Positions 2,997-21,828 of a DNA stretch of 21,829 nt are shown piece after piece; the first letter of the stretch is position 1, and the number at the start of each line of letters is the position of its first letter. A model generated the notes under the pieces. It saw only the letters and a list, made by a program, of their open reading frames with translations. It did not search any database and was not told where the DNA came from. Origin of the DNA: a virus; IMG/VR virus record IMGVR_UViG_3300028844_002207, positions 1-21,829 of that record, one strand, 5' to 3'. The translations under genes were made by a program, and so were the position numbers.

Positions 2997-5900
2997 ATGG
3001 CAACAATAACTGGCTCACAAAGATTATTATCTTTAGAAGGTAACACTGTAGATACTACTGTTTCTTTAGGGACAGGTGGTAGGTTGTTTGATCATTCAGG
3101 GTCTGCTGGTACTAAAGGTCAGATTCTTAGTACAACAGGTACAACTGTAGAATGGGTTGATGATAAAACAGGTACAAATAATTATGTATCAGGTATTAGC
3201 TTTAATACAACAAATGGAGTTTTAACATTGACACGTTCAGGTCTAGGAGATCTTACAGTAGATTTAGATGGTAGATATTTAACCTCTGCATCAAACTTTT
3301 ATCTTAATGGTATAACTAAATCAGGTAACACACTTACGTTTAGTGTTAGTGGTACTACAAATCAAACATATACATTTGGATCTAATGCGTTTAATAGTTC
3401 AACTATTTATGCTGAGCCAGGTATATTTAGTGGTGGAGGTACACCAACTTTAGCTTCCGGAGTAACTGGAGCAGAAGTAAGGTCATTAATTGGAGCTGGA
3501 ACAGGTTCAGGATCCATGAGCTCTTGGACAATAAAAGAAGGTAATGGTACTGAGTCAACTGCTGTTACTAACGGAGAGACTTTTACTATTGCTCAAGGTA
3601 CAGGTATTACATCTGAGATGACATCAACAAGTAGTGGTGGAACTATAACTATTACTAATACATTGCCGGATACTGGTAGACCTGCAATTTTATCTGATGG
3701 TACAAGTCCAACTTTAAATACAGGAATAAGTGCCTCAGAGGTAAGATCCCTTATAGGAGCAGGAACAGGAAATGGTAGTTCTAACTTAGTTATTGGTACA
3801 ACATCAACAACTGCAATGGCAGGTAACACTACAACTATCACTGCTCAACAAGCTACAGATATTGCAAATAACAATAAGAAAATAACAGATAGTGGAACAC
3901 CAGCAGTTTTATCTAATGGTACTACTCCTTCACTAAACTCAGGAATATCAGCTTCAGAAATGAGAAATCTTATTGGGGCAGGTACAGGTAATGGATCATC
4001 TAATTTAGTAATTGGAACTACCTCTACAACTGCAATGGCTGGTAATACAACAACTATTACAAGTGGTCAAGCATCAGATATTAGTAAAAATAATCTTAAG
4101 GTTAGTGATACTGGTGTGCCAGCAATACTTTCAAATGGAACTACTCCATCTCTTAATTCAGGAATTAGTGCTGCAGAAGTTAGAACATTAATTGGTGCAG
4201 GTACCAGCTCAAGTTCAGGTGTAACAAGTGTTGCAACTGGTAATGCTAATACACTAACTAAGAGTGGTACAACATCAGTAACGTTGACACCAAATACCGG
4301 TATTGTAACTTCTACTTCTACTAATTTAGCAACAGGTGCTCAGATATCAGCAGCCATTGATAAAGCTGTAACAGGAGTATTAAAATATATGGGAACATGG
4401 AATGCATCTGCTAATTTACCAGCACTGCAAACTGGAATAGGAAATGTAGGTGAATATTATATTGTATCTACAGCAGGTAATACAAATTTAGATGGTATTA
4501 CTGACTGGGCAGTAGGTGACTGGGCAGTATTTTCTGATCAAGCTACAGATGCTTGGCAGAAGATAGATAATACTCAAGTAGGTAATGTAACAGGTAGTGG
4601 TTCATCAGGTAGAGTAGCATATTGGAATGGCTCATCTAACATTACAAGTGATGCAGGATTAACATTTAATGGCAGTACAAATGCTTTAACTGTTAGTGGT
4701 GCGGTAACTTGGAGTGGTGGTAGTTCAGCAGAATCTAATTCTGCATATGATAATACTATTACAGGATTCTCTGATAGTGGATCTTCAACAAAGACTTTAA
4801 CATTAACACAAAGAGATGGTGGTACTTTAACAACATCTTTTAGTGTACCACAAGGAACAATGTCTTCATGGACTATTAAAGAAGGAAATGGAACAGAAAG
4901 TACAGCTGTTACAAATGGTGAAACATTAACAATAGCACAAGGTAGTGGTATACAATCAGAAATGACTTCTACAACTAGTGGAGGTACTATTACTATTACA
5001 AATACAGATAGAGGTTCTTCTCAAGATATATTTAAAAATGTAACTAATGGGATTGCTACTATTGTAGCTAAAGGTAACAATGATACTTTAACTATTTTAG
5101 GTTGTAAAGGAACAAATGTAGAAATTGATCCAGAAGCACAGACTGTATCTATATGTGCCGATAAGCAAACATTATCCGTAGTAGGACAAACACTTACTAT
5201 TAGTGATAGTAATTCTGTAACAATGCCAACTAATACAGGACCGCAGGGTCCTAAAGGTGATCAGGGTATACAAGGTATACAAGGAGTTACAGGTTCCGCT
5301 GGTGCCAAGGGAGATCAAGGTGATCAAGGTATTAGAGGTCTTACCGGAGCTGCAGGAGCTGCCGGTGCCAAAGGTGATACAGGAAGTCAAGGTATACAAG
5401 GGATACAAGGATTAACTGGAGCAGCTGGAGCAGCGGGAGCCAAAGGAGATACTGGAGATAGAGGTCTTCAAGGTATACAAGGAAATCCTGGTGCAGCAGG
5501 TGCTAAGGGAGATACTGGAGCTAGAGGAGCAACAGGATCTGCTGGTGCAGCCGGAGCAAAAGGGGACACAGGATCACAGGGTGCAAAGGGTGATACTGGA
5601 TCACAAGGTCCAGCAGGACCTAATGGCGGAACATACCATTATACTAATTCAGGTGATAATGCAAGTAAATATAGATTCTGGGGTACTTCAGCTACTTATG
5701 GTATAGGAATGGTGTCCGGTCAATCTTATGGTTATTTAAATGACTATGCTACAGTATTCCAAATGAATAATGATGCAGACCGTGGATGGGTTTGGAAATA
5801 TGAAGGTCAGGGAAATAATGATGGTGCTATGTCATTAACAACTTCCGGTAAATTAAAAGTTAAAGGAGTTGTTGACGCTGGTTCTGTGGCTATAGATGGT

Positions 5901-6503
5901 AATCAAGTAATTAATATTAAAGGTGATTGGGTTGGTAATCCCACAGGTTTAACAGGACCTAAAGGAGACACCGGTTCACAAGGTATTCAGGGTATTCAAG
6001 GTGCTACAGGATCTCAGGGTCCGGCTGGAGCTAAAGGAAATACGGGTTCTCAAGGACCTGCCGGAACTAATGGATCTGATGGAAATGACGGAGCACCGGG
6101 TGCAACAGGAGCCACTGGACCAAGGGGTGCAACTGGATTAACTGGAGCTACAGGAAGCCAAGGACCACAGGGACCACAAGGTGATAAAGGACCTACAGGT
6201 AGTCAAGGACCAACCGGATCAAGAGGACCTCAAGGTTTAACTGGTCCAACAGGGAGTCAAGGCCCGCAGGGAATACAAGGTCCTGCAGGTTCTAAAGGTA
6301 ATACGGGATCTACTGGTGCTACTGGTGCCACTGGACCACAGGGTCCTCCCGGTCAAGATGGTGGTGGTGATATTTATTTGAATGGAAAGTCAACAACAAT
6401 AAAATCACAAGAATTTTTTACAGAAGGTAAAACTGCATTCTTACGTATAACTTTTGAAGATGGAACCAGTACTTGTATATTATTAAGTAACTGTGAATTT
6501 TAA
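2997..6503 (+). CDS. Long modular tail fibre protein with collagen-like tracts (1168 aa)
   Basis: Internal 49-aa and 73-aa repeats; a YMGTWNA...[10 protein letters not shown]...DWAVGDW...WQKIDNT fibre module (~4380-4573); two uninterrupted Gly-X-Y tracts; a short C-terminal domain. Confidence 0.85.
3516..3662 (+). repeat. 49-aa fibre repeat A, copy 1 (copy 2 at 4860-5006)
   Basis: [49 protein letters not shown]; 45/49 aa identical to copy 2. Confidence 0.95.
3669..4205 (+). repeat. Tandem 73-aa (219-nt) fibre repeat B, about 2.5 copies
   Basis: Units start at 3669, 3888 and 4107 (D[TS]GxPA[IV]LS[DN]GT.P.LN.GISA.E.R.LIGAGT...). A diverged partial copy lies at ~3414-3506. Confidence 0.95.
4860..5006 (+). 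repeat. 49-aa fibre repeat A, copy 2
   Basis: [49 protein letters not shown]. Confidence 0.95.
5238..5624 (+). repeat. Collagen-like tract 1 (43 Gly-X-Y triplets)
   Basis: [12 protein letters not shown]...GSQGPAGPN, uninterrupted; counted by hand. Confidence 0.95.
5946..6359 (+). repeat. Collagen-like tract 2 (46 Gly-X-Y triplets)
   Basis: GLTGPKGDT...GPQGPPGQD, uninterrupted; counted by hand. Confidence 0.95.
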
Positions 6504-10339: not shown

Positions 10340-11563
10340 ATGGATAATATAAAGCAAAAAGTTCTTGACAGTTTAAAATGGAAAAAGCACCCATCTTATT
10401 GTGCTGAAAAACTGAACATTACAGAAAAGCAATATAAGAAAGTAAAAAAAGAATTATTAGCAGAAAGAAAAAACAAAAGAAAGAAATCTATATTTTTTAG
10501 TAAAGCTGCAGACAATGCACAAATTGCAGAAGCAATTGATTTAGAAAATGGAACTGGGAAGTTATCTGGAACTTTTGATCATGAGCCTAAAAGTGCAGAA
10601 GAAATAATAATCTTACTAAAGATAGACACTGATAAATGGAAATTGTCTCAGTATTGGAATAAACAAATGGGTGATCACTGGAGAGTTTCAGCATTAGTAT
10701 CACAAATAAAAAATCCAGAAGAAAAACTATTTGAAGACTTACTAAAAAACTGGACTCCCAAAAAATACAAAATATCAAATATACCTTATAAAAATAAATT
10801 TACTGATGATCCACATTGTGCAGTAATATCTCTACAAGATATTCATTTTGGCAAAGAAGGTAATGATACCATAGATAAAGATTTTGAAGATACAGTTAAG
10901 AACTTAGTTAGTAGAGCAAATGCTATACATCACATAGAAACTATGTACTTTGTTGTAGGAGGTGATTTAATCAACATGGATACCTTCCAGGGCACAACTA
11001 CAAGCGGAACACTTTTAGACAACTGTATGAGCGCTACAGAGGCTTATGTACAAGCATTTGATGCAATGCATTGGGCTGTAACATATATTAAATCTTTTTG
11101 TGACAAATTAGTAGTAGTATATGTTCCGGGAAATCATGATAGACTTTCTTCTTATCATTTAGCTCATGCTCTCTCAAGATCAATAGACTGTGATAAGATA
11201 ACATGGGATGTAAAATATGAAGAAAGAAAGGTTCATGTATGGCATAATAACTTTAATGCATTTGAACATGGGGATAAGCGTAGCAAGAATAATCCTTTAA
11301 TATATGCATCAGAGTATCCAAAAGCTTGGGGTGACACAACAAACAGAACATTATTTAAAGGTCATATACATACAGACAGAAAGGTTGAATATATGACATC
11401 AAATGAAACAGCAGGTTTTATAGAAAAGACGTTACCTAGCCTGGGTAAAACAGATTACTATCATTATAGTAACAAATATGTAGGCAATAGACGTTCAGGT
11501 AAACTAGAAATACAACACCCTACAATGGGTAATATATGTGAATTAACTTATCAAGCATTGTAA
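10340..11563 (+). CDS. Calcineurin-like metallophosphoesterase (Mre11/SbcD-type motifs) with basic N-terminal region
   Basis: All five superfamily motifs in order: DIHFG (10838), GGDL, GNHD (11129), EHGD, GHIH (11360). The N-terminal CAEKLNITEKQY is HTH-like. Confidence 0.9.
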   Translation: MDNIKQKVLDSLKWKKHPSYCAEKLNITEKQYKKVKKELLAERKNKRKKSIFFSKAADNAQIAEAIDLENGTGKLSGTFDHEPKSAEEIIILLKIDTDKWKLSQYWNKQMGDHWRVSALVSQIKNPEEKLFEDLLKNWTPKKYKISNIPYKNKFTDDPHCAVISLQDIHFGKEGNDTIDKDFEDTVKNLVSRANAIHHIETMYFVVGGDLINMDTFQGTTTSGTLLDNCMSATEAYVQAFDAMHWAVTYIKSFCDKLVVVYVPGNHDRLSSYHLAHALSRSIDCDKITWDVKYEERKVHVWHNNFNAFEHGDKRSKNNPLIYASEYPKAWGDTTNRTLFKGHIHTDRKVEYMTSNETAGFIEKTLPSLGKTDYYHYSNKYVGNRRSGKLEIQHPTMGNICELTYQAL

Positions 11564-12194: not shown

Positions 12195-12869
12195 ATGGCA
12201 ACAATAGCAGACGTAGTATCAAGAATTAGAGGCCAAGTAAAAGCAGGAGTTCAAGATGCTTTTGTCACTGATAGATATATCTATAGCTTAATTGAAAAGT
12301 ATGCTCAGTTTTTAATGAGAAGGCAAGATTATGCAAATAAATTATTAAAATTTAATTCAGTATGGAAAACATTACCATATGTAGAATTAATTGAAGTAGA
12401 TAAAGTTGAAGCTCATTGTGCTGGAATACAAAGTGGTTGTACAATAAAACGTTCAAAACATAGATTACCTTCAATGTTTGAAGGTTACTGGGGTCCATTA
12501 ATACGTACCATTAGTTCAATAGATGGTTCACAAGAGCTGCAAGGAACCCAACCTGGTACATATACATCATTAACAAAAAGTACTTCTTTTAGATATAACA
12601 AAACATTATATTTTTGGTGGTTAGATGGTTACATCTACTGTCCAAACATTGCATGGGATGCAATTAAAGTAGAAGGTGTATTTGACTCAGATATAACTAA
12701 ATGGGATTGTGATACAGAAAATGATTGCACCCCTAGATATGAGCAAGAAATTTACATACCAGAAGCATTGTTTGCAGAAATAGAAAGCCAAGTTATTGCT
12801 ACTATGTCAGGTACATTACAAATACCATCTGAAGATTCAGATAACAAACGTAACATAGCAAGAACTTAA
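12195..12869 (+). CDS. Putative tail ring/adaptor structural protein (224 aa)
   Basis: The N-terminal TIADVVSRIR...TDRYIYSLI helix pair and C-terminal YIPEALFAEIESQVI helix are typical of P22 gp4-like/crAss ring proteins; gene order supports this. Confidence 0.6.
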   Translation: MATIADVVSRIRGQVKAGVQDAFVTDRYIYSLIEKYAQFLMRRQDYANKLLKFNSVWKTLPYVELIEVDKVEAHCAGIQSGCTIKRSKHRLPSMFEGYWGPLIRTISSIDGSQELQGTQPGTYTSLTKSTSFRYNKTLYFWWLDGYIYCPNIAWDAIKVEGVFDSDITKWDCDTENDCTPRYEQEIYIPEALFAEIESQVIATMSGTLQIPSEDSDNKRNIART

Positions 12870-12880
12870 AAAATACAACA

Positions 12881-13795
12881 ATGGGGGTATCACAAAAATA
12901 TAGAACTTTTAGTCAATTGATGGAAGATGTTTCCATTGATTTTTCAACGTATGCACTTGAAGGATTAATTGAACCTGCTCAACTTATTAAAGTTGCAACA
13001 CGTGTAAATTATGATTTAGGGTTACGTATACATAGAACTAAAGAAGTTATTATAGATATAGAACATGGTAAAGGTCAATTACCTTTTGATTTTCAATATT
13101 TAAACTACGCATTTAGATGTGGATCATACACTGTAAATAGCACAATGCCATCAGGAACCCATGTTGAAACATTCAATGACGTACCATATGTTCCTGCTCC
13201 TGGTGATGTAGCACCATGTGAAGATGGAAAGGTATGTAAAGATGTATGTGTTGTTAAAACATGTAATGATAAAGATAGTTATCAATTAGTTCAGAGAATA
13301 GGGGGTGGTCAATTTAGAACATTTAATACTTGGACTGAATTAAGAATCAAAGACGTTAATGATAAAGTTTGTTACTGTCCTAGTCTAGGTGCACAAGCAG
13401 TAGATATAGCAGAAGTAAAAGATGGTTTTTTAATAACTACGTTTAATACAGGAAAAGTCTATTTAAGTTACCAAGGTGCTATGGAAAATGCAGAGGGTGA
13501 TTTATTAGTATTAGATCAACCATATTGCAATGAATATTATGAGTATGCAATAAAACAAAGAATATTAGAAAATATGGTTTGGAATGGTGAGAATGTATCT
13601 CAACAATTACAGCTAGTAGAAAGTAGACTAAGAGGAGCAAGAAATAACGCATTAGGTTTTGTTAATACACCAAACTTCCAAGAAATGAGAAAAGTTTGGA
13701 ATATGAACAGAAGAGCACAGTATCATAATTATTACAATATGTTTTTAAGTTATGCGCCTGCTAACCCTCAAGTAGTAACAGGACCAAAGAGATAA
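12881..13795 (+). CDS. Putative tail tubular/ring protein (P22 gp4-like, crAss Ttub; 304 aa)
   Basis: GKGQLPFDF...GFLITTFNTGKVYLSYQG...EGDLLVLD...YYEYAIK pattern; lies directly upstream of the muzzle gene. Confidence 0.65.
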   Translation: MGVSQKYRTFSQLMEDVSIDFSTYALEGLIEPAQLIKVATRVNYDLGLRIHRTKEVIIDIEHGKGQLPFDFQYLNYAFRCGSYTVNSTMPSGTHVETFNDVPYVPAPGDVAPCEDGKVCKDVCVVKTCNDKDSYQLVQRIGGGQFRTFNTWTELRIKDVNDKVCYCPSLGAQAVDIAEVKDGFLITTFNTGKVYLSYQGAMENAEGDLLVLDQPYCNEYYEYAIKQRILENMVWNGENVSQQLQLVESRLRGARNNALGFVNTPNFQEMRKVWNMNRRAQYHNYYNMFLSYAPANPQVVTGPKR

Positions 13796-13801
13796 TATAT
13801 T

Positions 13802-16800
13802 ATGGCTAAAAAGGAAACACCTCCTCAACCACAGGGCAAAGGTTCATCATCAGTAAATATAAATACATTTACTAAAGGTATGAATAAAGATGTTGCTCCT
13901 TCATTTGAAGGTCAACAAGCATGGTGGCATGCAAGGAATGCAGCAAATAATTCTGAGGATGGAGATATAGGAATGATTGGCAATGAGCCATCAAACTTAT
14001 CATGTGGTGTTATTCCATATACAGTTATAGGTGCTATACATAGATATGGTGATGAGTGGATAGTTTTTTCAACTGATAATGTAAGTTCTGAAATAGGAAG
14101 GTTTGATGATAGTGAATGTAAGTACACTACATTAGTTAATGACCCGTGTTTAAATTTTACTAAAAAACATTTAATTACAGGTGCAGCAAAAGAAAATTTT
14201 GATTGTACTTGGGAAGTATATTGGGATGATGCAAACAATCCATCAAGAGCTTTAAATATAGATGATATACCCTGGAAAAAAGTTCAAATTACAGGTCCGG
14301 ATATTGATGGAGACCCGTGTGTTAGATATGAAATCATAGAACCTAAAAAATTAGATTGTCAAGAAATAAGATTAGCTCCACTAGTAGATACACCTTGTAT
14401 AGAATTAGATAAAGCAACAGACGGTGGTATGTTACGTAATGGAACGTATCAAGCATTTATTGCATATGTAGAGAATGAACAAAAAGTTACAGACTATATT
14501 GGTATATCTAATTTACAATCTTTATTTAGTCACCAAGGTTCAGATAGTTCTTTAAATATAAAAGTTTCTAATTTAGATCAAGATTATTATTATTATGAAT
14601 TAGTACTATTAATGAGAAACCAAGGCCAAACTCTAGCAAAGAGAATTGGTTTATATAGCACAGAACAATCAGACATTAATATTGATTTTATAGATCCAGC
14701 ATTACCTGCTATAGATTTAAAATTAATACCTCTTAGAAGTCCGGCTTATGAAAAGTCAGAGTCTATGTTTGTTGTAAATGATTGGTTAATAAGACAAGGA
14801 CCAACTGAACAATTTGATTTTAATTATCAACCTATTGCAAATCAAATCCAAACAAATTGGGTTATAAATTCTTTGTCTAGTAAGTATTACACATTAGGTG
14901 GAAACAAGTTAGGTTTCATGCGTGATGAGCAATATGCATTTTTTATTAGATGGATATATAATACAGGTGAAAGATCTTCTTCATATCATATACCCGGAAG
15001 GGCTCCAGAAAACTATAATGGTACTATGGAGAATGAAATTGTATTTGGAGATAATGTATTAAATACTGATGGAGAACCTTTATTTAAAGTATATAATACT
15101 GCAACTGCAACAAATTTAAATCTTAACGAACCTCAAGAAGATAATAGTTTAGTTATTGCAAGAGGTAAAATGGGCTATTGGGAATCAACAGAACTTTATC
15201 CATCTAACAGACCAGATATTTGGGGTAATCTATGTGGTAAACCTATAAGACATCACAAGATGCCTGATGAGTCAATAGGGGGTGCAAACTCTCCATTACA
15301 TATTAGTACTACTGATGGTGATAATATAAATTTAGTAGGTGTTGAATTTACTAATATTGGTAGACCTAAATATAATGACGGATCTTATATTGAAAATGTT
15401 GTAGGTTATGAAATACTAAGAGGGTCTAGACAAGGAGCAAGATCTATTTTGGCAAAAGGTATGTTTAAAAACATGCGTAAATATGATATACCAGATTCTG
15501 AAAATATACTAGGAAATTCACAAGGGTTGTATCCTAACTATCCTTATAACTCTTTGCAGCATGATGTATTTTTTCAAGATGGTACTAGAAATAAAACCAC
15601 AGAGAATTTTTGTGATCAAGGAGATTTTACAGGAAGTATAAATCATTATGAACCTTTAAAGGGATTTACAAAGGATGTGTTTTCTTTTCATGCTCCAGAT
15701 TTAATGTTTGCTAAACCATTTTTAAATGCATATGAAACTAAAATATATGGTAACATTCATGGCAAGTCTGCAGGCAGGTTTACTCCTTCAGAAGATCACC
15801 CACAATTTAAATTACTAAGACCTGCTGCTGCATCTCTTGCAGTAGTAATAGGAATTGGATATGCTCTTAATGCTGTTCAGGGTACTACAAACAAGAAAGC
15901 ATTACCGGTTCAAGGTTTGAATCCAGTATATGCACCATGGTTTGTTGGAGGTTTTACTAATGGTGGTACTGTAACAGGTGGATTTACTGCTGCCCCAGCA
16001 TCAATAGGTGCTTTAGCAATAGGTAATGCAATATGGGATATTTTATTAGATACACTATTAGATGACCTTGTAGATTTTGCAGATATATATGCAGGTGGAA
16101 TTGTTTCATCAACACAATTAAATATTCAGGGTGCAACTAACTTCGTAAAAACTGCAGTCCCTGGTACTCAAGGTGGTGGTATTGAAGAAGGAACAGTTTA
16201 TGATAAACCTGAAGCAGCAATGCCAAGTCTTCTAAGAGGAATCATTGGTGTATCAATGGCACAAAAGAATATTGCAATAGGTGGTGATGAAATCATTGAT
16301 TTATTTTATAACATGGTTAGTTTTTATGACTTTGTTTTAAAATATAACTCTACTGGATTCTTTAATAATTTTGCAAAAATTAATCAGAACGATATATTTA
16401 GAACAAAAAATAATGATTCTAATTATATAGGATCATCATTTCAAACTTTTGATGGTATTAAATATAAAATTAATAATTTATTTAGACCATCTACTGTAGC
16501 TGTTTCAACAGAAAAAGAATTAGCTATACCTACTACAGTTGATTATTCACGTTTTGCACTTGGTGGTTATGTAAGAACTGATGGTAGCGTTAATGATTTT
16601 CAAAATTCTTTAATTAAAGACTTTAGTAAAGCAGAAAGACAAACAAGTATATCTGCATTATACGGTGCTTTAAAGTTTAACTTTGATAATCAGTATGGTC
16701 AATTAGATGGTATAAAGCAAATACAAATGAGAGGTTGTGTTGAGTTATTAGATAATAACTTACCACCTGAAGCTTTATATACATCTAAACCAATCTTTAG

Positions 16801-19800
16801 TGGAGATGTGTCAATTAATAGATATACTGAAAAATGTATAATGCCTATTTTTACAAACTTCTTAAAAGGGCAACCCAACGGTCATGCATTTGATTATAGT
16901 TTATATGTAAACATACCTTATCCAAGATTTTGGTTAAACTCAACTAAGTTTGACATAAGTAATATGGCACGTGAAGTTGCAACATTAGGTTTAGCTTCAG
17001 GGTCATGGGAAGATGCTTTACCAACAAATCAATTTTATTTAGATAGAGGATCTGGAAACTGTCAAAGCACAAATCTTTTTGGAAGTCTGTTTGGAGGTTC
17101 AGGTGGAGGTGGAAATTTAAATCCTGCTTTTCAAATGAAAAGGGCATATATGTATACTCATATAAATGGGATTAATGAATTCTTTGTAGAGTCAGAAGTT
17201 AATTTAGCATATAGAGATTGGGAAGATTCACCAGATAAAAGATTCTATGACGCTTATGAGTATAATGACTTAGGTGTACTATTTCATGCTGATAATATTA
17301 AAGCAGATAACTTTTATAAGTATGATGATTCATTGTCTGGATCAAAGTTTCCAACTCAAATGACTTCATTTGGTCAGGTGCAACCTAGGGATTATGACCC
17401 ATATGTTTCTGAGACATGTTTTGTTAGTTATCCAAAAAGATTAATTTATTCATTACAAGCACAGGAAGAATCAAAAAGAGATTACTGGAGAGTGTTTTTA
17501 AATAATAACTATAAAGATTTTAAAAATGAAGTAAGTGTTATTAAACCTATAAATAAGAATGGAGCATTAATATTCTTCCCTTATTTATCTCCTCAAATGT
17601 TTCAAGGTCTTGATACATTAAAGACTCAACTAGACACAAAGCTTACTATAGGTGACGGAGGTTTATTTAGTCAACCGTTCCAAAATGTTGCAAATGCAGA
17701 TTTGTCAAATGAGTATGGATCATGTGAAAGTTTAAGAGGTGTTATTAATACACCATTAGGATTATTTTTTATATCTCAACAACAAGGTAAAATATTTCAA
17801 TATGCTGGTAAAGGTATGGACCCTATATCTAATAATGGAATGAAATGGTGGTTTAACAAATACTTACCTTCTAGATTTATAAAACAATTTCCAAGTTCAG
17901 AAAATACACAATGGACAGATAATCCTGTAGCAGGAGTAGGATGTCAAGTAATGTATGATTCAGTAGATGATATAGTCTACTTTATGAAAAAAGATTATCA
18001 ATTGAAGCCTGACTACATAGGTCAAGCAACATTTGTTGATAGACCGTTTAAACCTGTAGAAATAAGAGGAGAGGCAAGAGTACCAGTAAGTATTGATATT
18101 GGTGATCCAGTATATTTTGATGATTGCTCATGGACAGTGTCTTATGATCCAAAGTCTAAAGCATGGATATCTTTTCATGACTGGCATCCTGAGTTAGCTT
18201 TACCTAGTATAAATCATTTCTTTACAACTAAGACAGTAACTACTACAATACCACAATGTCCTCCGGGATATAATTTTAATTCTACTACTGGATTATGTGA
18301 GATAGGGATTAATGAATCAATACCTGCTGAAGTAACTATAGAAAACATTGCAGCTACAATAGGAGGTGGTCCTGTAAATTGTTTAGTTGATGTAGTAATA
18401 TCAATGGATGTATCTGGTAGTACTAATCAGTTTGGTAGAAGAGCGGCTCAACAAACTTGGTTGACTGCATTTTTAAATGATCCACAAATACAAACATTTA
18501 TGTCCAACAGTCAAATGCAAATTGGATTTGATGTATGGGATGGTGCAGCACGTGTTTATACTATGCCGGGAGGTGTAACAATGAGTCATACAATAACAGA
18601 AGCGCAAGCTACTGCTTGGTATAATGCAAACTGGACTGGTGGCTCAACTAATGTACTTTTAGGATTACAGACTGGTAATGGCATACTAACTAATCCAGCT
18701 AATTCAACATTAGGTGATAGAACATCACAACCTAATTATAGAGCTATACAGATTCTTATTACAGATACAACTAGTGCACCAGGTAATAATGTTGGTCAAA
18801 CTTTTACATCTGTTGGTGCAGGTACTGCTCCAGCATATCAATTTGTTTATGCAATGTATTGTGGTGCAACTTCTTCAATACCACCAACTCCGGGTGTATT
18901 GAATGATATATCTATGTCAAATGGGCCAGTAAATGTTGATCCATTTCAATTTGGTATTAATGCATCTGACCCAACAACTTTTCAAAGTGTAGCAACAGCA
19001 ATTGCAGGAGCTGTATGTGGTACTGATTTTACTTGTGATTGTCCAGCAGGATATACTAAAGTATTTTTAGATCCGGTTACTTCTACTTATACTGCAACAT
19101 CTGGTGCATGTGATGACGTAACTCCTCCAATATGTAGAAAGGTAACTTGTGAATGTCCAACATCAACAGTTCCAGGATCAACAACAACTCAATCAGGAAC
19201 ATGTCCAGATACAGCTCCTGGTATATTTATTATTGGAGATCCAACTTGGATAGATCCAACACCATTAATATGTAATTATTTCTATTTTGATTCTGTAACA
19301 CCTAATTATAATGTAGGAGGATTTTGGAGACACAATGTAAGATGTGATTCATTTGTAAATTATTATGGTGAAGACTATCCTTGGGAAATAGATTTAATAT
19401 CTAATACAGGTCAATCTGTTAATACAGTAAGAAGTTTTGAATATCAATTAGAAACTTATGTATATAAAGGAGACCCACAATATAATATGTGTGGTGGAGA
19501 TAAATGGGAAGATTTAGATTTTAACTTTGATGCTTCTATTATTTATAATAATGATCAAACATCAGGTTTACTATTATTAAATCCACAACCAGTTAATAGT
19601 CCTTGGACAAACTTAGACTTTCCAACTTTACAATTTAATGGTATACAAATACTAGTTTCTAAAGTAGAACACAAATTTAGATTTAATCAATTTTGGGATG
19701 TAACTAATGACAGAGGAGAATTCACAAATGCAGAGCAGCCTATATTTGATACATCATGTAATGGTTATGTAAGACCATTAAATTACATTAACATTAATTA

Positions 19801-19933
19801 TGCAAAGAGTGCTACTCAACGTAAGAAGTTTAGACATTATTCTAATAATGTTATTTTACGTAGAAATGTATCTGGAAACAGAAAGATGTTATTGAGATTA
19901 AATAATACTAAACTTTTACTATCACAAAGATAA
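13802..19933 (+). CDS. Muzzle / tail stabilisation protein (P22 gp10-like, crAss Tstab) with inserted vWA domain (2043 aa)
   Basis: N-terminal NTFTKGMNKD motif, FMRDEQYAFFIRW, and SWTVSYDPKSKAWISFHDWHP...WRHN...NYYG near the C-terminus, as recalled for crAss-like muzzle proteins. Size and gene order fit. DVSGS MIDAS motif at 18407-18421. Confidence 0.75.
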   Translation: MAKKETPPQPQGKGSSSVNINTFTKGMNKDVAPSFEGQQAWWHARNAANNSEDGDIGMIGNEPSNLSCGVIPYTVIGAIHRYGDEWIVFSTDNVSSEIGRFDDSECKYTTLVNDPCLNFTKKHLITGAAKENFDCTWEVYWDDANNPSRALNIDDIPWKKVQITGPDIDGDPCVRYEIIEPKKLDCQEIRLAPLVDTPCIELDKATDGGMLRNGTYQAFIAYVENEQKVTDYIGISNLQSLFSHQGSDSSLNIKVSNLDQDYYYYELVLLMRNQGQTLAKRIGLYSTEQSDINIDFIDPALPAIDLKLIPLRSPAYEKSESMFVVNDWLIRQGPTEQFDFNYQPIANQIQTNWVINSLSSKYYTLGGNKLGFMRDEQYAFFIRWIYNTGERSSSYHIPGRAPENYNGTMENEIVFGDNVLNTDGEPLFKVYNTATATNLNLNEPQEDNSLVIARGKMGYWESTELYPSNRPDIWGNLCGKPIRHHKMPDESIGGANSPLHISTTDGDNINLVGVEFTNIGRPKYNDGSYIENVVGYEILRGSRQGARSILAKGMFKNMRKYDIPDSENILGNSQGLYPNYPYNSLQHDVFFQDGTRNKTTENFCDQGDFTGSINHYEPLKGFTKDVFSFHAPDLMFAKPFLNAYETKIYGNIHGKSAGRFTPSEDHPQFKLLRPAAASLAVVIGIGYALNAVQGTTNKKALPVQGLNPVYAPWFVGGFTNGGTVTGGFTAAPASIGALAIGNAIWDILLDTLLDDLVDFADIYAGGIVSSTQLNIQGATNFVKTAVPGTQGGGIEEGTVYDKPEAAMPSLLRGIIGVSMAQKNIAIGGDEIIDLFYNMVSFYDFVLKYNSTGFFNNFAKINQNDIFRTKNNDSNYIGSSFQTFDGIKYKINNLFRPSTVAVSTEKELAIPTTVDYSRFALGGYVRTDGSVNDFQNSLIKDFSKAERQTSISALYGALKFNFDNQYGQLDGIKQIQMRGCVELLDNNLPPEALYTSKPIFSGDVSINRYTEKCIMPIFTNFLKGQPNGHAFDYSLYVNIPYPRFWLNSTKFDISNMAREVATLGLASGSWEDALPTNQFYLDRGSGNCQSTNLFGSLFGGSGGGGNLNPAFQMKRAYMYTHINGINEFFVESEVNLAYRDWEDSPDKRFYDAYEYNDLGVLFHADNIKADNFYKYDDSLSGSKFPTQMTSFGQVQPRDYDPYVSETCFVSYPKRLIYSLQAQEESKRDYWRVFLNNNYKDFKNEVSVIKPINKNGALIFFPYLSPQMFQGLDTLKTQLDTKLTIGDGGLFSQPFQNVANADLSNEYGSCESLRGVINTPLGLFFISQQQGKIFQYAGKGMDPISNNGMKWWFNKYLPSRFIKQFPSSENTQWTDNPVAGVGCQVMYDSVDDIVYFMKKDYQLKPDYIGQATFVDRPFKPVEIRGEARVPVSIDIGDPVYFDDCSWTVSYDPKSKAWISFHDWHPELALPSINHFFTTKTVTTTIPQCPPGYNFNSTTGLCEIGINESIPAEVTIENIAATIGGGPVNCLVDVVISMDVSGSTNQFGRRAAQQTWLTAFLNDPQIQTFMSNSQMQIGFDVWDGAARVYTMPGGVTMSHTITEAQATAWYNANWTGGSTNVLLGLQTGNGILTNPANSTLGDRTSQPNYRAIQILITDTTSAPGNNVGQTFTSVGAGTAPAYQFVYAMYCGATSSIPPTPGVLNDISMSNGPVNVDPFQFGINASDPTTFQSVATAIAGAVCGTDFTCDCPAGYTKVFLDPVTSTYTATSGACDDVTPPICRKVTCECPTSTVPGSTTTQSGTCPDTAPGIFIIGDPTWIDPTPLICNYFYFDSVTPNYNVGGFWRHNVRCDSFVNYYGEDYPWEIDLISNTGQSVNTVRSFEYQLETYVYKGDPQYNMCGGDKWEDLDFNFDASIIYNNDQTSGLLLLNPQPVNSPWTNLDFPTLQFNGIQILVSKVEHKFRFNQFWDVTNDRGEFTNAEQPIFDTSCNGYVRPLNYININYAKSATQRKKFRHYSNNVILRRNVSGNRKMLLRLNNTKLLLSQR

Positions 19934-21828
19934 TGGCACGTAAAAAAAGCATAGGACTACCGGGAGGACCAAATGAATATCTTCAAGATATAACACAATA
20001 TATATCTGTAGATGGTTATAAACGTACTAGCTCTGATAAAACCAATCCGGTTAATATCATTGAGTCAGGTTCAATAACAATGGAGGATGTAGATTTTCCT
20101 GTTATGGGAACAGATAATCTAGGTAATAGTCAGATAATGATGCCTGGTAATAACTATCAGTTTCCAGGAGATAGTGTGTTAGAAGTACCTATGGCACAGA
20201 CAGGTTATGAAGTTCCAAAAAGAAATGGTGTTAGGGACAATGAGGATGGTTCTGTGTCCACACATCTTATGGCAACTGAAACTTTAGATGGTAAAAATTG
20301 GTTTTCTTTTCCTACATTATTTCAAGATGAAGATGGTACTTGGGTTGACATGTCTGAACAAGCAAAAATAGACTGGAAGCCTGTATATGAAGAAGCTAAA
20401 AGAAGAGGTGAGATTATAGACTTTGGAAAAGATAAAGAACGTGCATTAAAGTTTGGTAAAGGTTCTTGGAAACCTAAAATGAAACTTGGTGGTGGTTTAT
20501 TAGATAAAACCATGGAATGCAATAGTTGTGGTTGGAAATGGAAAGCTGCAGATGGTGGAGCTGATGTCTCTACATGTCACAAGTGTGGTGGTAGTGCATT
20601 ACCAAAAGCTCAAAATGCAGGTGAGGACATAGGAGTAAAAATTGATGATGATGTTGTTAAAAATTCATTTCAAAGTCAGTGGTTAGATTCACCAATGTAT
20701 AAGGAAATCTTAGCAAATGAAGTTGGCCCAAATGATGACGCTGACTTTATAACTTTTGGTAGAAAATCTAATTTAGAAAATATAAATCTTGAGCTTGAAG
20801 ATGGTGTAAAAGAAGGAAATGAGGGAACAGCTGCAGTATCATATAATAATAATGGAAAGATTAAATTTTATGAACCAGCACAAGCTGGTTTGGATCAAGA
20901 TCATGTTCATGTAAATACTGCTGAACATGAAATAGGTCATAGTAGTGATAGAGTAGGGCCCGACACACGGGCTAAATATATGGTAAATTTATCTTTAAAG
21001 GATAAAGCAGCTTTAGCAAATTTTACTGGTTCAATGACATCACCTTTTGTTAGTTTAGCAAATGCAGGATATAATTTTTTAACTGACCAACCATTAAATG
21101 ATTTACAAAGAAGAGGTATGCAGATTACAAAAAATCTGGGTACAGATAGGCTTATACCTGAAAAAACTGTTAAAAGATTTAATGATGAAAGACTTAATAT
21201 AGAGGGTTATGATGATAATGGAGTTCCTATAATAAATAATTATGATGAAGCATACTATGAGAAATATGATGATAAAGGTAATCCTATAGTAAAGTTTAAC
21301 AGGGATGGGACTATACAAGAAGGATCTATAGGTATTTCTAAAGATAGTTGGGCTGATTATGTGTCTGAACCAACAGAAGCTAGAACTAGATTAAATACAA
21401 TTAGATCAGCAGCACAAGATTTAGGTATATATGATCCTTTTACGGAAAAGTTAACTCCAGAAAAATATCAAGAATTAAAATCTAGAGTGAAAGATTTAGA
21501 TAGAGGAGAAGATAGTGGTTATAATCCTTTATTACAGTTGCAAGATATATATAGTGATGATGAAATATTTGATATGCTTAATACTGTATCAGATGCATCT
21601 AAAGATTCTAAATCAAGGTATGCACAAAAAGGCGGTGCAATTCCAAAAGCACAAACAGGTAATAGAGGTAATAATACATTAGATGAGGCAGTCATTCCTG
21701 TTTTAGAAGGAGCAGCTGAAAAGGCAGATGAATTTTCTACATGGCTAGGTAAACAAACTAAGGATTTAATGAGTCCAGATCTTGATATAGAAACTAGATT
21801 AAAAATGTTTGAACAAGTAAGACCTGTT
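19933..21828 (+). CDS. Modular virion cargo/ejection protein, 3'-truncated (>632 aa), with Zn ribbon and HExxH zincin-like domain
   Basis: The ATG overlaps the muzzle stop (TAATG) and the frame stays open to the window end (MARKKSIGLPGGPNEY...FEQVRPV; manual translation). CNSCG...CHKCG at 20518-20589, HEIGH at 20926-20940, YVSEPTEARTR at 21358-21390. Absent from the supplied ORF track because it has no stop codon in the window. Confidence 0.85.
   Translation, partial: MARKKSIGLPGGPNEYLQDITQYISVDGYKRTSSDKTNPVNIIESGSITMEDVDFPVMGTDNLGNSQIMMPGNNYQFPGDSVLEVPMAQTGYEVPKRNGVRDNEDGSVSTHLMATETLDGKNWFSFPTLFQDEDGTWVDMSEQAKIDWKPVYEEAKRRGEIIDFGKDKERALKFGKGSWKPKMKLGGGLLDKTMECNSCGWKWKAADGGADVSTCHKCGGSALPKAQNAGEDIGVKIDDDVVKNSFQSQWLDSPMYKEILANEVGPNDDADFITFGRKSNLENINLELEDGVKEGNEGTAAVSYNNNGKIKFYEPAQAGLDQDHVHVNTAEHEIGHSSDRVGPDTRAKYMVNLSLKDKAALANFTGSMTSPFVSLANAGYNFLTDQPLNDLQRRGMQITKNLGTDRLIPEKTVKRFNDERLNIEGYDDNGVPIINNYDEAYYEKYDDKGNPIVKFNRDGTIQEGSIGISKDSWADYVSEPTEARTRLNTIRSAAQDLGIYDPFTEKLTPEKYQELKSRVKDLDRGEDSGYNPLLQLQDIYSDDEIFDMLNTVSDASKDSKSRYAQKGGAIPKAQTGNRGNNTLDEAVIPVLEGAAEKADEFSTWLGKQTKDLMSPDLDIETRLKMFEQVRPV

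Follow-up and report, generated by a model that had tools for sequence, protein, structure and literature searches.

The open reading frame (ORF) that begins at position 19933 of the window, a 21,829-nucleotide stretch of IMG/VR virus record IMGVR_UViG_3300028844_002207, belongs to a marine crAss-like phage and probably encodes its first cargo (ejected) protein, and a short peptide recurs at the joints between its modules. This junction tag is real, very widespread and apparently undescribed; literature searches found no published description of it. The reading we favor, at a probability of roughly 45%, is that the tag is an uncut flexible seam that also serves as a docking or loading handle. 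How megadaltons of protein are loaded into the particle and pushed into the host is an open question for crassviruses (PMC10172136), and structures of their ejection proteins have been called for (PMC13434306). In an 89,257-bp IMG/VR virus record, about 78% complete, the window corresponds to positions 59251-81079 on the minus strand.

A recurrent tag at module joints

The modules and tags of the cargo ORF are listed below, with model confidence given as the predicted local distance difference test score (pLDDT) and with the places where BLAST high-scoring segment pairs (HSPs) break.

19933..21828 (+): cargo-type protein, first 632 residues of 1,766; runs past the window to extended coordinate 25233
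19933..20187 (+): N-terminal anchor module, residues 1-85; a basic leader, an invariant GLPGGPN, then a small beta domain
20188..20211 (+): tag 1, PMAQTGYE, residues 86-93; pLDDT below 50; sequence diverges directly after it
20212..20472 (+): module 2, residues 94-180, a folded alpha/beta domain; pLDDT 79-88
20473..20496 (+): tag 2, PKMKLGGG, residues 181-188; 7.8 bits; pLDDT below 50; HSP breaks at residues 181-189
20497..20598 (+): Zn-ribbon mini-module, residues 189-222, with CxxC...CxxC in its sequence
20599..20625 (+): tag 3, LPKAQNAGE, residues 223-231; 12.5 bits; pLDDT below 50; HSP breaks at residues 220-231
20626..21615 (+): zincin-like metallopeptidase module, residues 232-561; HEIGH and weak structural matches to zincins
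21616..21666 (+): composite tags 4 and 5, RYAQKGGAIPKAQTGNR, residues 562-578; 9.3 and 11.5 bits; pLDDT 28-39
21667..21828 (+): large C-terminal body, residue 579 onward, helical at its start (AlphaFold model, Pfam)

The 632-residue frame is open at the window end, a truncation due to the window alone. Past it, Pfam recognizes an SLT domain, two LysM domains and a YkuD domain, and the protein closes with a conserved 58-residue module that is preceded by a further tag, PNYAVGGE (residue 1701). The layout is a fixed N-terminal anchor, a variable string of modules and a fixed C-terminal module; the string here consists of the alpha/beta domain, the Zn ribbon, the zincin and, last, a wall-degrading body that holds the SLT, LysM and YkuD domains. 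Five motifs that a first-pass annotation had read from the letters are all present in the translation, namely PMAQTG (residues 86-91, 20188-20205), PKMKLGG (181-187, 20473-20493), LPKAQNAG (223-230, 20599-20622), YAQKGG (563-568, 21619-21636) and PKAQTG (571-576, 21643-21660), as are the CxxC...CxxC ribbon and the HEIGH (residues 332-336) that it had pointed out. Tags 4 and 5 fit the internal consensus G-G-[SA]-[LI]-P-K-A-Q-x-G, and after residue 578 some 1,120 residues pass without a tag until PNYAVGGE. One ambiguous base (N) yields an X near residue 1560 of the 1,766-residue protein, in the C-terminal lysozyme-like region.

Homologs were collected by searching residues 1-100 with phmmer against 1.84 billion representatives. 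At E<=0.001 the N-terminal module matches 2,509 representative proteins, the shortest of 70 residues and the longest of more than 2,500, and 145 of the best 150 matches make up the homolog set. Across the first copy of the tag in these 145, the successive columns are P (97%), M (74%), A (85%), Q (72%, otherwise K), a free position, G (93%), one of G, I or L, and E (50%), which gives the consensus P-[MK]-A-[QK]-x-G-[G/x]-E. In internal copies G-G-[SA]-L often stands in front, and their longer consensus is G-G-[SA]-[LI]-P-K-A-Q-x-G-x-E (123 distinct internal contexts). An eight-column matrix trained on the first copy alone, then scanned over the rest of the same proteins, found 112 further copies scoring at least 10 bits where shuffles preserving local composition yield 4.0, and 53 scoring at least 14 bits where they yield 0.4. 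In the phage's own proteome (28,639 residues) the homolog-built matrix gives 16 matches of at least 6 bits where shuffles give 4.6; the cargo ORF holds six of them (binomial p 2.6e-4) and the six cargo genes together hold 12 (p 4.5e-3). Comparison with chance across the proteome, a check proposed along with the original motifs, thus places the motif above shuffles and concentrated in the cargo genes. Plain Gly-Gly was rejected as the signal: its density is not enriched in cargo proteins, so Gly-Gly alone does not account for the tag. Two tiny Lys-rich ORFs of 72 and 60 residues (extended coordinates 58712-58930 and 60422-60604), which adjoin a holin-like gene and a small tail-protein gene, carry three to five x-x-x-G-G tags each (MRTGG, MRKGG, YKMGG; YTYGG, AKSGG, FMSGG, KMYGG).

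The tags fall between folded domains. An AlphaFold2 model of residues 1-632 (24-row alignment, mean pLDDT 70) has folded modules at residues ~20-86, 100-177 and 233-552, and its segments with pLDDT below 50 (residues 88-95, 178-192, 220-232, 316-321 and 553-594) together contain all five motifs, so that each motif falls in a linker of low confidence that separates folded modules. A Foldseek search of the PDB with the whole model found nothing at E<=0.001.

Sequence homology breaks at the same places. In an all-against-all BLAST comparison of 110 long homologs with 120 internal tags, an HSP end being counted when it fell within 12 residues of a tag, 1,224 HSPs end at tags and 754 span them, compared with 391 and 1,252 at random positions. 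Ends outnumber spans at 76 of the 120 tags, versus 13 at random (maximum 22 in 100 trials). Homology blocks within the cargo protein break at residues 91-96, 181-189, 224-231, 570-576 and 1704-1706, and each break coincides with a tag. Four relatives from IMG/VR (1,733, 1,844, 1,073 and 895 residues) keep the first 85 and the last ~58 residues, and in them whole blocks between motifs have been replaced, deleted or inserted. Module 2 is found at other positions in homologs P0024, P0085 and P0134, and the Zn ribbon travels as one unit (residues 181-231) in more than 20 homologs, L005 being without it. The 80 residues that follow tag 1 form 53 clusters among 140 proteins; at least about 50 different modules come after the same N-terminal module. 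The modules themselves are mostly wall-directed: of 39 homologs, 14 have LysM, six PG_binding_1, four SLT, three YkuD, and one each lysozyme and ART-PolyVal. The placement of the motif at module boundaries, as first proposed, therefore agrees with both the HSP-break statistics and the low-pLDDT linkers, and homologs gain, lose and swap modules exactly at the motif.

Neighboring cargo genes bear the tag as well. Gene 2 has the seams (marked here by a colon) DQAKSG:IEIK, KEEGG:EF, APKAADG:VE and KQNGG:EQ, the last of these before a conserved C-terminal peptide, and it gains and loses modules at those seams. Homologs of gene 3 have P-M-A-[QR]-[FY]-G-x-E near residues 275-320. In three gene-1 homologs (P0091, P0092 and P0131) the gene-2 module IEIKPENKGKF stands directly after tag 1, which indicates that cassettes move between cargo genes. 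Evolution swaps modules at the tag, both within gene 1 and between cargo genes 1 and 2, and the plug-and-play architecture suggested at the outset is supported. The tag predicts where modules start and end in unannotated giant ORFs, the N-terminal anchor that precedes it is known from at least 2,500 protein clusters, and the first cargo protein emerges as a fast-evolving cassette carrier of cell-wall enzymes.

Gene 3 itself (L002:3586-6537, minus strand; extended coordinates 28044-30995) is most conserved in its N-terminal 230 residues, where 39 homologs share dozens of invariant columns, including MxDGG and EAEGGET. AlphaFold gives this conserved part (residues 25-230) a pLDDT of about 30, Foldseek finds nothing for the model, and the gene 3 hidden Markov model (HMM) has no match to gp45 of phage crAss001. 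An N-terminus of this kind would be expected if the segment took up its fold only as part of the virion assembly.

Docking or cutting at the joints

Under the favored reading, the tag peptide would stay uncut in the virion and act as a flexible seam and as a docking or loading handle. The modules would be beads on a string that could be loaded, kept at the portal or tail, and extruded in unfolded form during infection, and the zincin would be one optional cargo module instead of the processor of the joints. In its favor, a segment of crAss001 gp45 described as one domain spans a weakly homologous joint, the zincin is optional, and no S77, S78, C5 or C39 protease was found in the five incomplete genomes searched. 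Cleavage and docking had both been offered in the first-pass annotation as roles for the linker, and docking or packaging is the better fit. The virion RNA polymerase of N4, likewise with a zincin, reportedly enters the particle without being processed (PMC5512222), in support of an uncut tag.

The HExxH domain noted in the first reading is accepted here as a zincin-like module at residues 232-561. Its HEIGH (20926-20940) lies within a predicted helix (residues 327-338) and takes the form HE[VI][GS]H in close homologs. A candidate third zinc ligand of the gluzincin type, Glu482 (21376-21378), is part of a conserved Y-x-x-x-P-x-E-A-R on a predicted helix (residues 480-496), and at least 10 of 11 homologs keep D339, Y476, P480 and E482. 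The best VIA-align rows for the module are nearly all zincins at weak Z scores of 4-5.7, among them neprilysin (Z 5.7), PepO, Zmp1, the VgrG2b effector, lethal factor, PPEP and SprT-like proteins. A sixth AQxG, PAQAGL at residues 315-320 in a loop inside the module, was considered as a pseudo-substrate and rejected, as relatives do not conserve it.

Tags flank the zincin module in all homologs, as they do other cassettes. An HExxH of any kind occurs in 40 of the 110 long homologs, drawn from several unrelated zincin types, and 70 have none; tag density per 1,000 residues is 1.53 in the former and 1.83 in the latter. No tag occupies the zincin cleft of the AlphaFold model. Because the zincin is optional, the density is the same without it and the cleft holds no tag, processing in cis by the zincin is not a general explanation of the tag. 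The proposal that the protein's own zincin releases the modules is thus not supported. No prohead- or GG-type protease was detected in this genome or four relatives. The zincin is an optional cargo module and probably an effector or a wall or envelope enzyme.

Directed searches of this genome and four relatives for proteases of the S77 (T4), S78 (HK97), C5 (adenain) and C39 types found none, on five contigs that are 39-81% complete, and most of the larger ORFs, when scanned with Pfam and PHROG, yielded zincin-type candidates only. Three proteins of the genome contain HExxH: the cargo zincin, a 4,616-residue RNA-polymerase polyprotein and a DUF2201_N protein. When the polyprotein is compared with the split homologs of gut crass phages, only a catalytic stretch of about 300 residues aligns, at 23-27% identity. 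The DUF2201_N putative metallopeptidase is fused to a VWA-like domain (L013:4856-7294, in the replication module) and adjoins a MoxR-type AAA ATPase; the two genes form a pair like N4 gp24/gp25.

The crAss001 protein gp45 (cargo C1; PDB 7QOG, 7QOI, 7QOJ, 7QOL and 8CKB; PMC10172136) is encoded, like the ORF here, directly after the muzzle gene, and like cargo genes 1-3 here it begins with a basic leader followed by Gly-Gly. It consists of small modules with A-[YF]-G-G joints, and the pieces resolved by cryo-electron microscopy (residues 214-245 and 425-552) sit between such joints. Unlike the target protein, it is 842 residues long with no recognized enzymatic modules, its tag is A[YF]GG in place of AQxG[G]E, and it shows no detectable homology to the target ORF, the HMM of the N-terminal module having no match to it. 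BLAST and HMM comparisons of gene 1 with gp45 and gp46 were not significant, and only gene 2 gave a weak module match: gp45 residues 370-424 are colinear with the marine gene-2 module IEIKPENKGKF (BLAST E 3e-5 in an 11-sequence set, HMM conditional E 2.3e-6). By this homology the marine AKSG:IEIK corresponds to AKDGG:DIKIK of gp45, and the next marine joint, WKKEEGG, to NAFGG/TQGG. Residues 425-552 of gp45 have been described as one compact portal-bound domain (Bayfield 2023, PMC10172136), and by sequence this domain starts with AFGG and contains TQGG and NEGG. A single domain across AFGG/TQGG would mean that the mature virion protein is uncut after Gly-Gly at a probably homologous joint; by this analogy the gp45 structure probably speaks against cutting after Gly-Gly in the mature virion.

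Several points weigh on the other side. The gp45 link is a weak homology (E ~0.2 at PDB scale, with nothing found by phmmer), the range 425-552 is the one stated in the paper and not one taken from coordinates, and the gp45 evidence covers the mature virion only, so that cutting may take place after ejection. The basic leader and Gly-Gly at the cargo N-termini examined (genes 1-3 and gp45) look like protease substrates, and two tiny ORFs are made almost only of tags. The tag's G-x-E, whose E is present in 41-50% of copies, is similar to A-x-E, the motif at which prohead proteases of giant phages cut (PMC10052503), and the contigs searched for proteases have the limited completeness given above.

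The main rival, less likely than the favored reading, is that the tag is a protease cleavage site. The cargo protein would then be a true polyprotein cut by a packaged metallopeptidase inside the capsid or after ejection, the candidates being the zincin in cis where present and otherwise the HExxH of the 4,616-residue polyprotein or the DUF2201 metallopeptidase-VWA/MoxR pair. Tags lie in exposed linkers at every module boundary; the leader with Gly-Gly opens genes 1-3 and gp45; the 60- and 72-residue ORFs are mostly tags; and the A-x-E sites that G-x-E resembles include those of the SPN3US gp245 protease (PMC10052503). Zincins are the commonest enzymatic module, counted by HExxH in the 40 of 110 homologs, HExxH is present in two further proteins of the genome, and both zincin autoprocessing in polyvalent proteins and the cutting of fused crAss RNA-polymerase polyproteins have been proposed in the literature. 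Pieces of gp45 occupy two widely separated positions in the virion (PMC10172136), and no clear full-length gp45 band was recognized in the 2018 data from matrix-assisted laser desorption/ionization (MALDI). Set against this are a tag density that is independent of a zincin in cis, a modeled cleft in which no tag docks, the negative searches for S77, S78, C5 and C39 proteases in five incomplete genomes, a Glu after Gly in only 41-50% of tags, the description of gp45 residues 425-552 as one domain despite AFGG, TQGG and NEGG, and the report of processing in neither crAss001 paper.

The MALDI evidence comes from peptide-mass fingerprinting of the public crAss001 lists (PMC6235969), gel bands 1-10, in which gp45 has at most four weak matches and dominates no band, a result compatible with a cut as well as an uncut protein. 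The bands resolve to gp44, gp50 with gp47, gp49 with gp44, gp20, gp26 with gp22, gp22 with gp25, gp25, and gp23. The two highest, bands 1 and 2, are the muzzle protein gp44 (157 kDa), running above the 270-kDa RNA-polymerase subunits, which suggests oligomers of gp44 that resist sodium dodecyl sulfate.

A wider proposal seems doubtful: that the tag is a portable loading-and-release code common to Crassvirales and some other Bacteroidota phages, in which any tag-flanked module would be packed into the capsid or tail, ejected and then cut at the tag outside the virion by a co-packaged metallopeptidase, freeing wall-degrading and anti-host effectors separately. If a loading code of this kind were true, it would provide a way of loading foreign proteins into phage particles. 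The tag defines mutagenesis targets and peptide substrates by which the question of cutting versus docking can be addressed.

It is unlikely that the tag is mainly a recombination seam, its coding stretch CCW AAA GCW CAA NNN GGT allowing in-frame exchange and its peptide being a tolerated linker. A precedent is known from the gp38 adhesins of T-even phages, whose swappable segments lie between conserved glycine-rich motifs. Module exchange here takes place exactly at the tag, and in this AT-rich genome the tag codons of different copies are close to identical, with about 12 of 18 bases shared. The phage also has recombination genes, for a PD-(D/E)XK nuclease and an AAA_24 protein. Yet selection at the DNA level fits poorly with a peptide conserved across representatives less than 50% identical, with P, A and G at 85-97% and x free, with synonymous differences between copies, or with the different codons of [FY]QxGG in phage phi17:2 and A[FY]GG in crAss001. 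A stretch of 14-18 bases is moreover very short for homologous exchange, and a pure DNA-level role leaves the N-terminal leader tags unexplained. Chance or low complexity, by which the motifs would be unrelated Gly-containing linkers, as the loose definition of the original motif and the lack of Gly-Gly enrichment might allow, is refuted by the 28-fold to more than 100-fold excess over shuffles, obtained with a matrix from independent positions, and by the strong association with boundaries.

Related and comparable systems

Among 50,697 cultured-phage records, the 632 residues found no match by tblastn, and the N-terminal module alone matches only the Cellulophaga phages phi17:2 and phi4:1. 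Their gp041/gp40, annotated as a virion structural protein, shares the anchor module (HMM E 3e-18 for phi17:2 gp041). The phi17:2 gene (L015:11968-14655) is, like the one here, downstream of a muzzle-like protein (2,289 residues) and a tail-protein gene, and its product has [FY]-Q-x-G-G tags. In contrast to the phage here, phi17:2 is a 145-kb non-crAss phage (Lightbulbvirus), and its gp041 has 895 residues and no zincin. The anchor module, tags and muzzle-like neighbor of gp041 together indicate that the tail and cargo module reaches beyond Crassvirales, and phi17:2 and phi4:1 are the nearest cultured handle on this protein family.

The ejected podovirus protein gp16 of T7, whose SLT domain opens the cell wall, resembles an SLT-bearing cargo protein; unlike the protein here, it is not known to have swappable cassettes or a recurrent junction peptide.

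Polyvalent proteins (Iyer 2017, PMC5512222) likewise carry many effector and enzyme domains on one virion-delivered polypeptide. The protein here has the zincin-like, SLT, two LysM and YkuD domains on a single chain and so, like them, combines two or more effector or enzyme domains that are unrelated to each other. Zincin (MPTase) modules are common in both data sets, about 36% of the proteins carrying one, and one homolog here carries ART-PolyVal. The two differ in that most modules here are directed at peptidoglycan and each terminus is a fixed anchor module; a junction motif is not described for polyvalent proteins in PMC5512222, whose text does not use the word 'linker'.

The T4 capsid targeting sequence is, like the tag, a short peptide common to packed and injected proteins and placed as an N-terminal leader, and the G-x-E of the tag resembles the A/G/S-x-E sites of the T4, phiKZ and SPN3US prohead proteases (PMC10052503). 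The tags of those phages are N-terminal only, are removed by an identified protease and have an obligate P1 Glu, whereas the tag here is also internal and C-terminal, has Glu in 41-50% of copies and is accompanied by no such protease in the searches described. The distribution of the tag over leaders, joints and tiny tag-only ORFs, known here from sequence alone, fits a targeting sequence of the T4 type.

Genome setting of the cargo genes

The first-pass annotation had read the ORF as a modular cargo protein of the kind that crAss-like phages encode after the muzzle gene, and the gene order bears this out. Ring protein 2, ring protein 1, the muzzle-like ORF and the cargo ORF follow one another in the order that marks a Crassvirales cargo protein:

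12195-12869 (+): ring protein 2; Pfam CrAss_Ring_2, E 2e-17
12881-13795 (+): ring protein 1; Pfam CrAss_Ring_1, E 6e-8
13802..19933 (+): muzzle-like virion protein, 2,043 residues; PHROG 37948 / 15100 'virion structural protein', E 7e-47

As in crAss001 (PMC10172136), the muzzle-like gene follows the ring genes; its stop codon and the ATG of the cargo ORF overlap at 19933. The Pfam cargo family gave no match at E<=0.01 for the cargo ORF or the next three proteins. On the 3' side of the 1,766-residue ORF come ORFs of 915, 983, 1,155, 4,616 and 1,927 residues, a series that matches the order in which crassviruses carry their cargo and virion RNA-polymerase genes (PMC10172136).

Two further genes of the window were noted. 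An Mre11/SbcD-like DNA repair exonuclease of 407 residues (10340-11563, +; PHROG 704, E 6e-46) is encoded in the middle of the tail module, flanked by genes of the tail-fiber region and by the ring-protein genes. A tail-fiber protein of 1,168 residues (2997-6503, +) has long collagen-like repeats and many PHROG matches to tail-fiber and collagen-like families, the best at E 1e-59.

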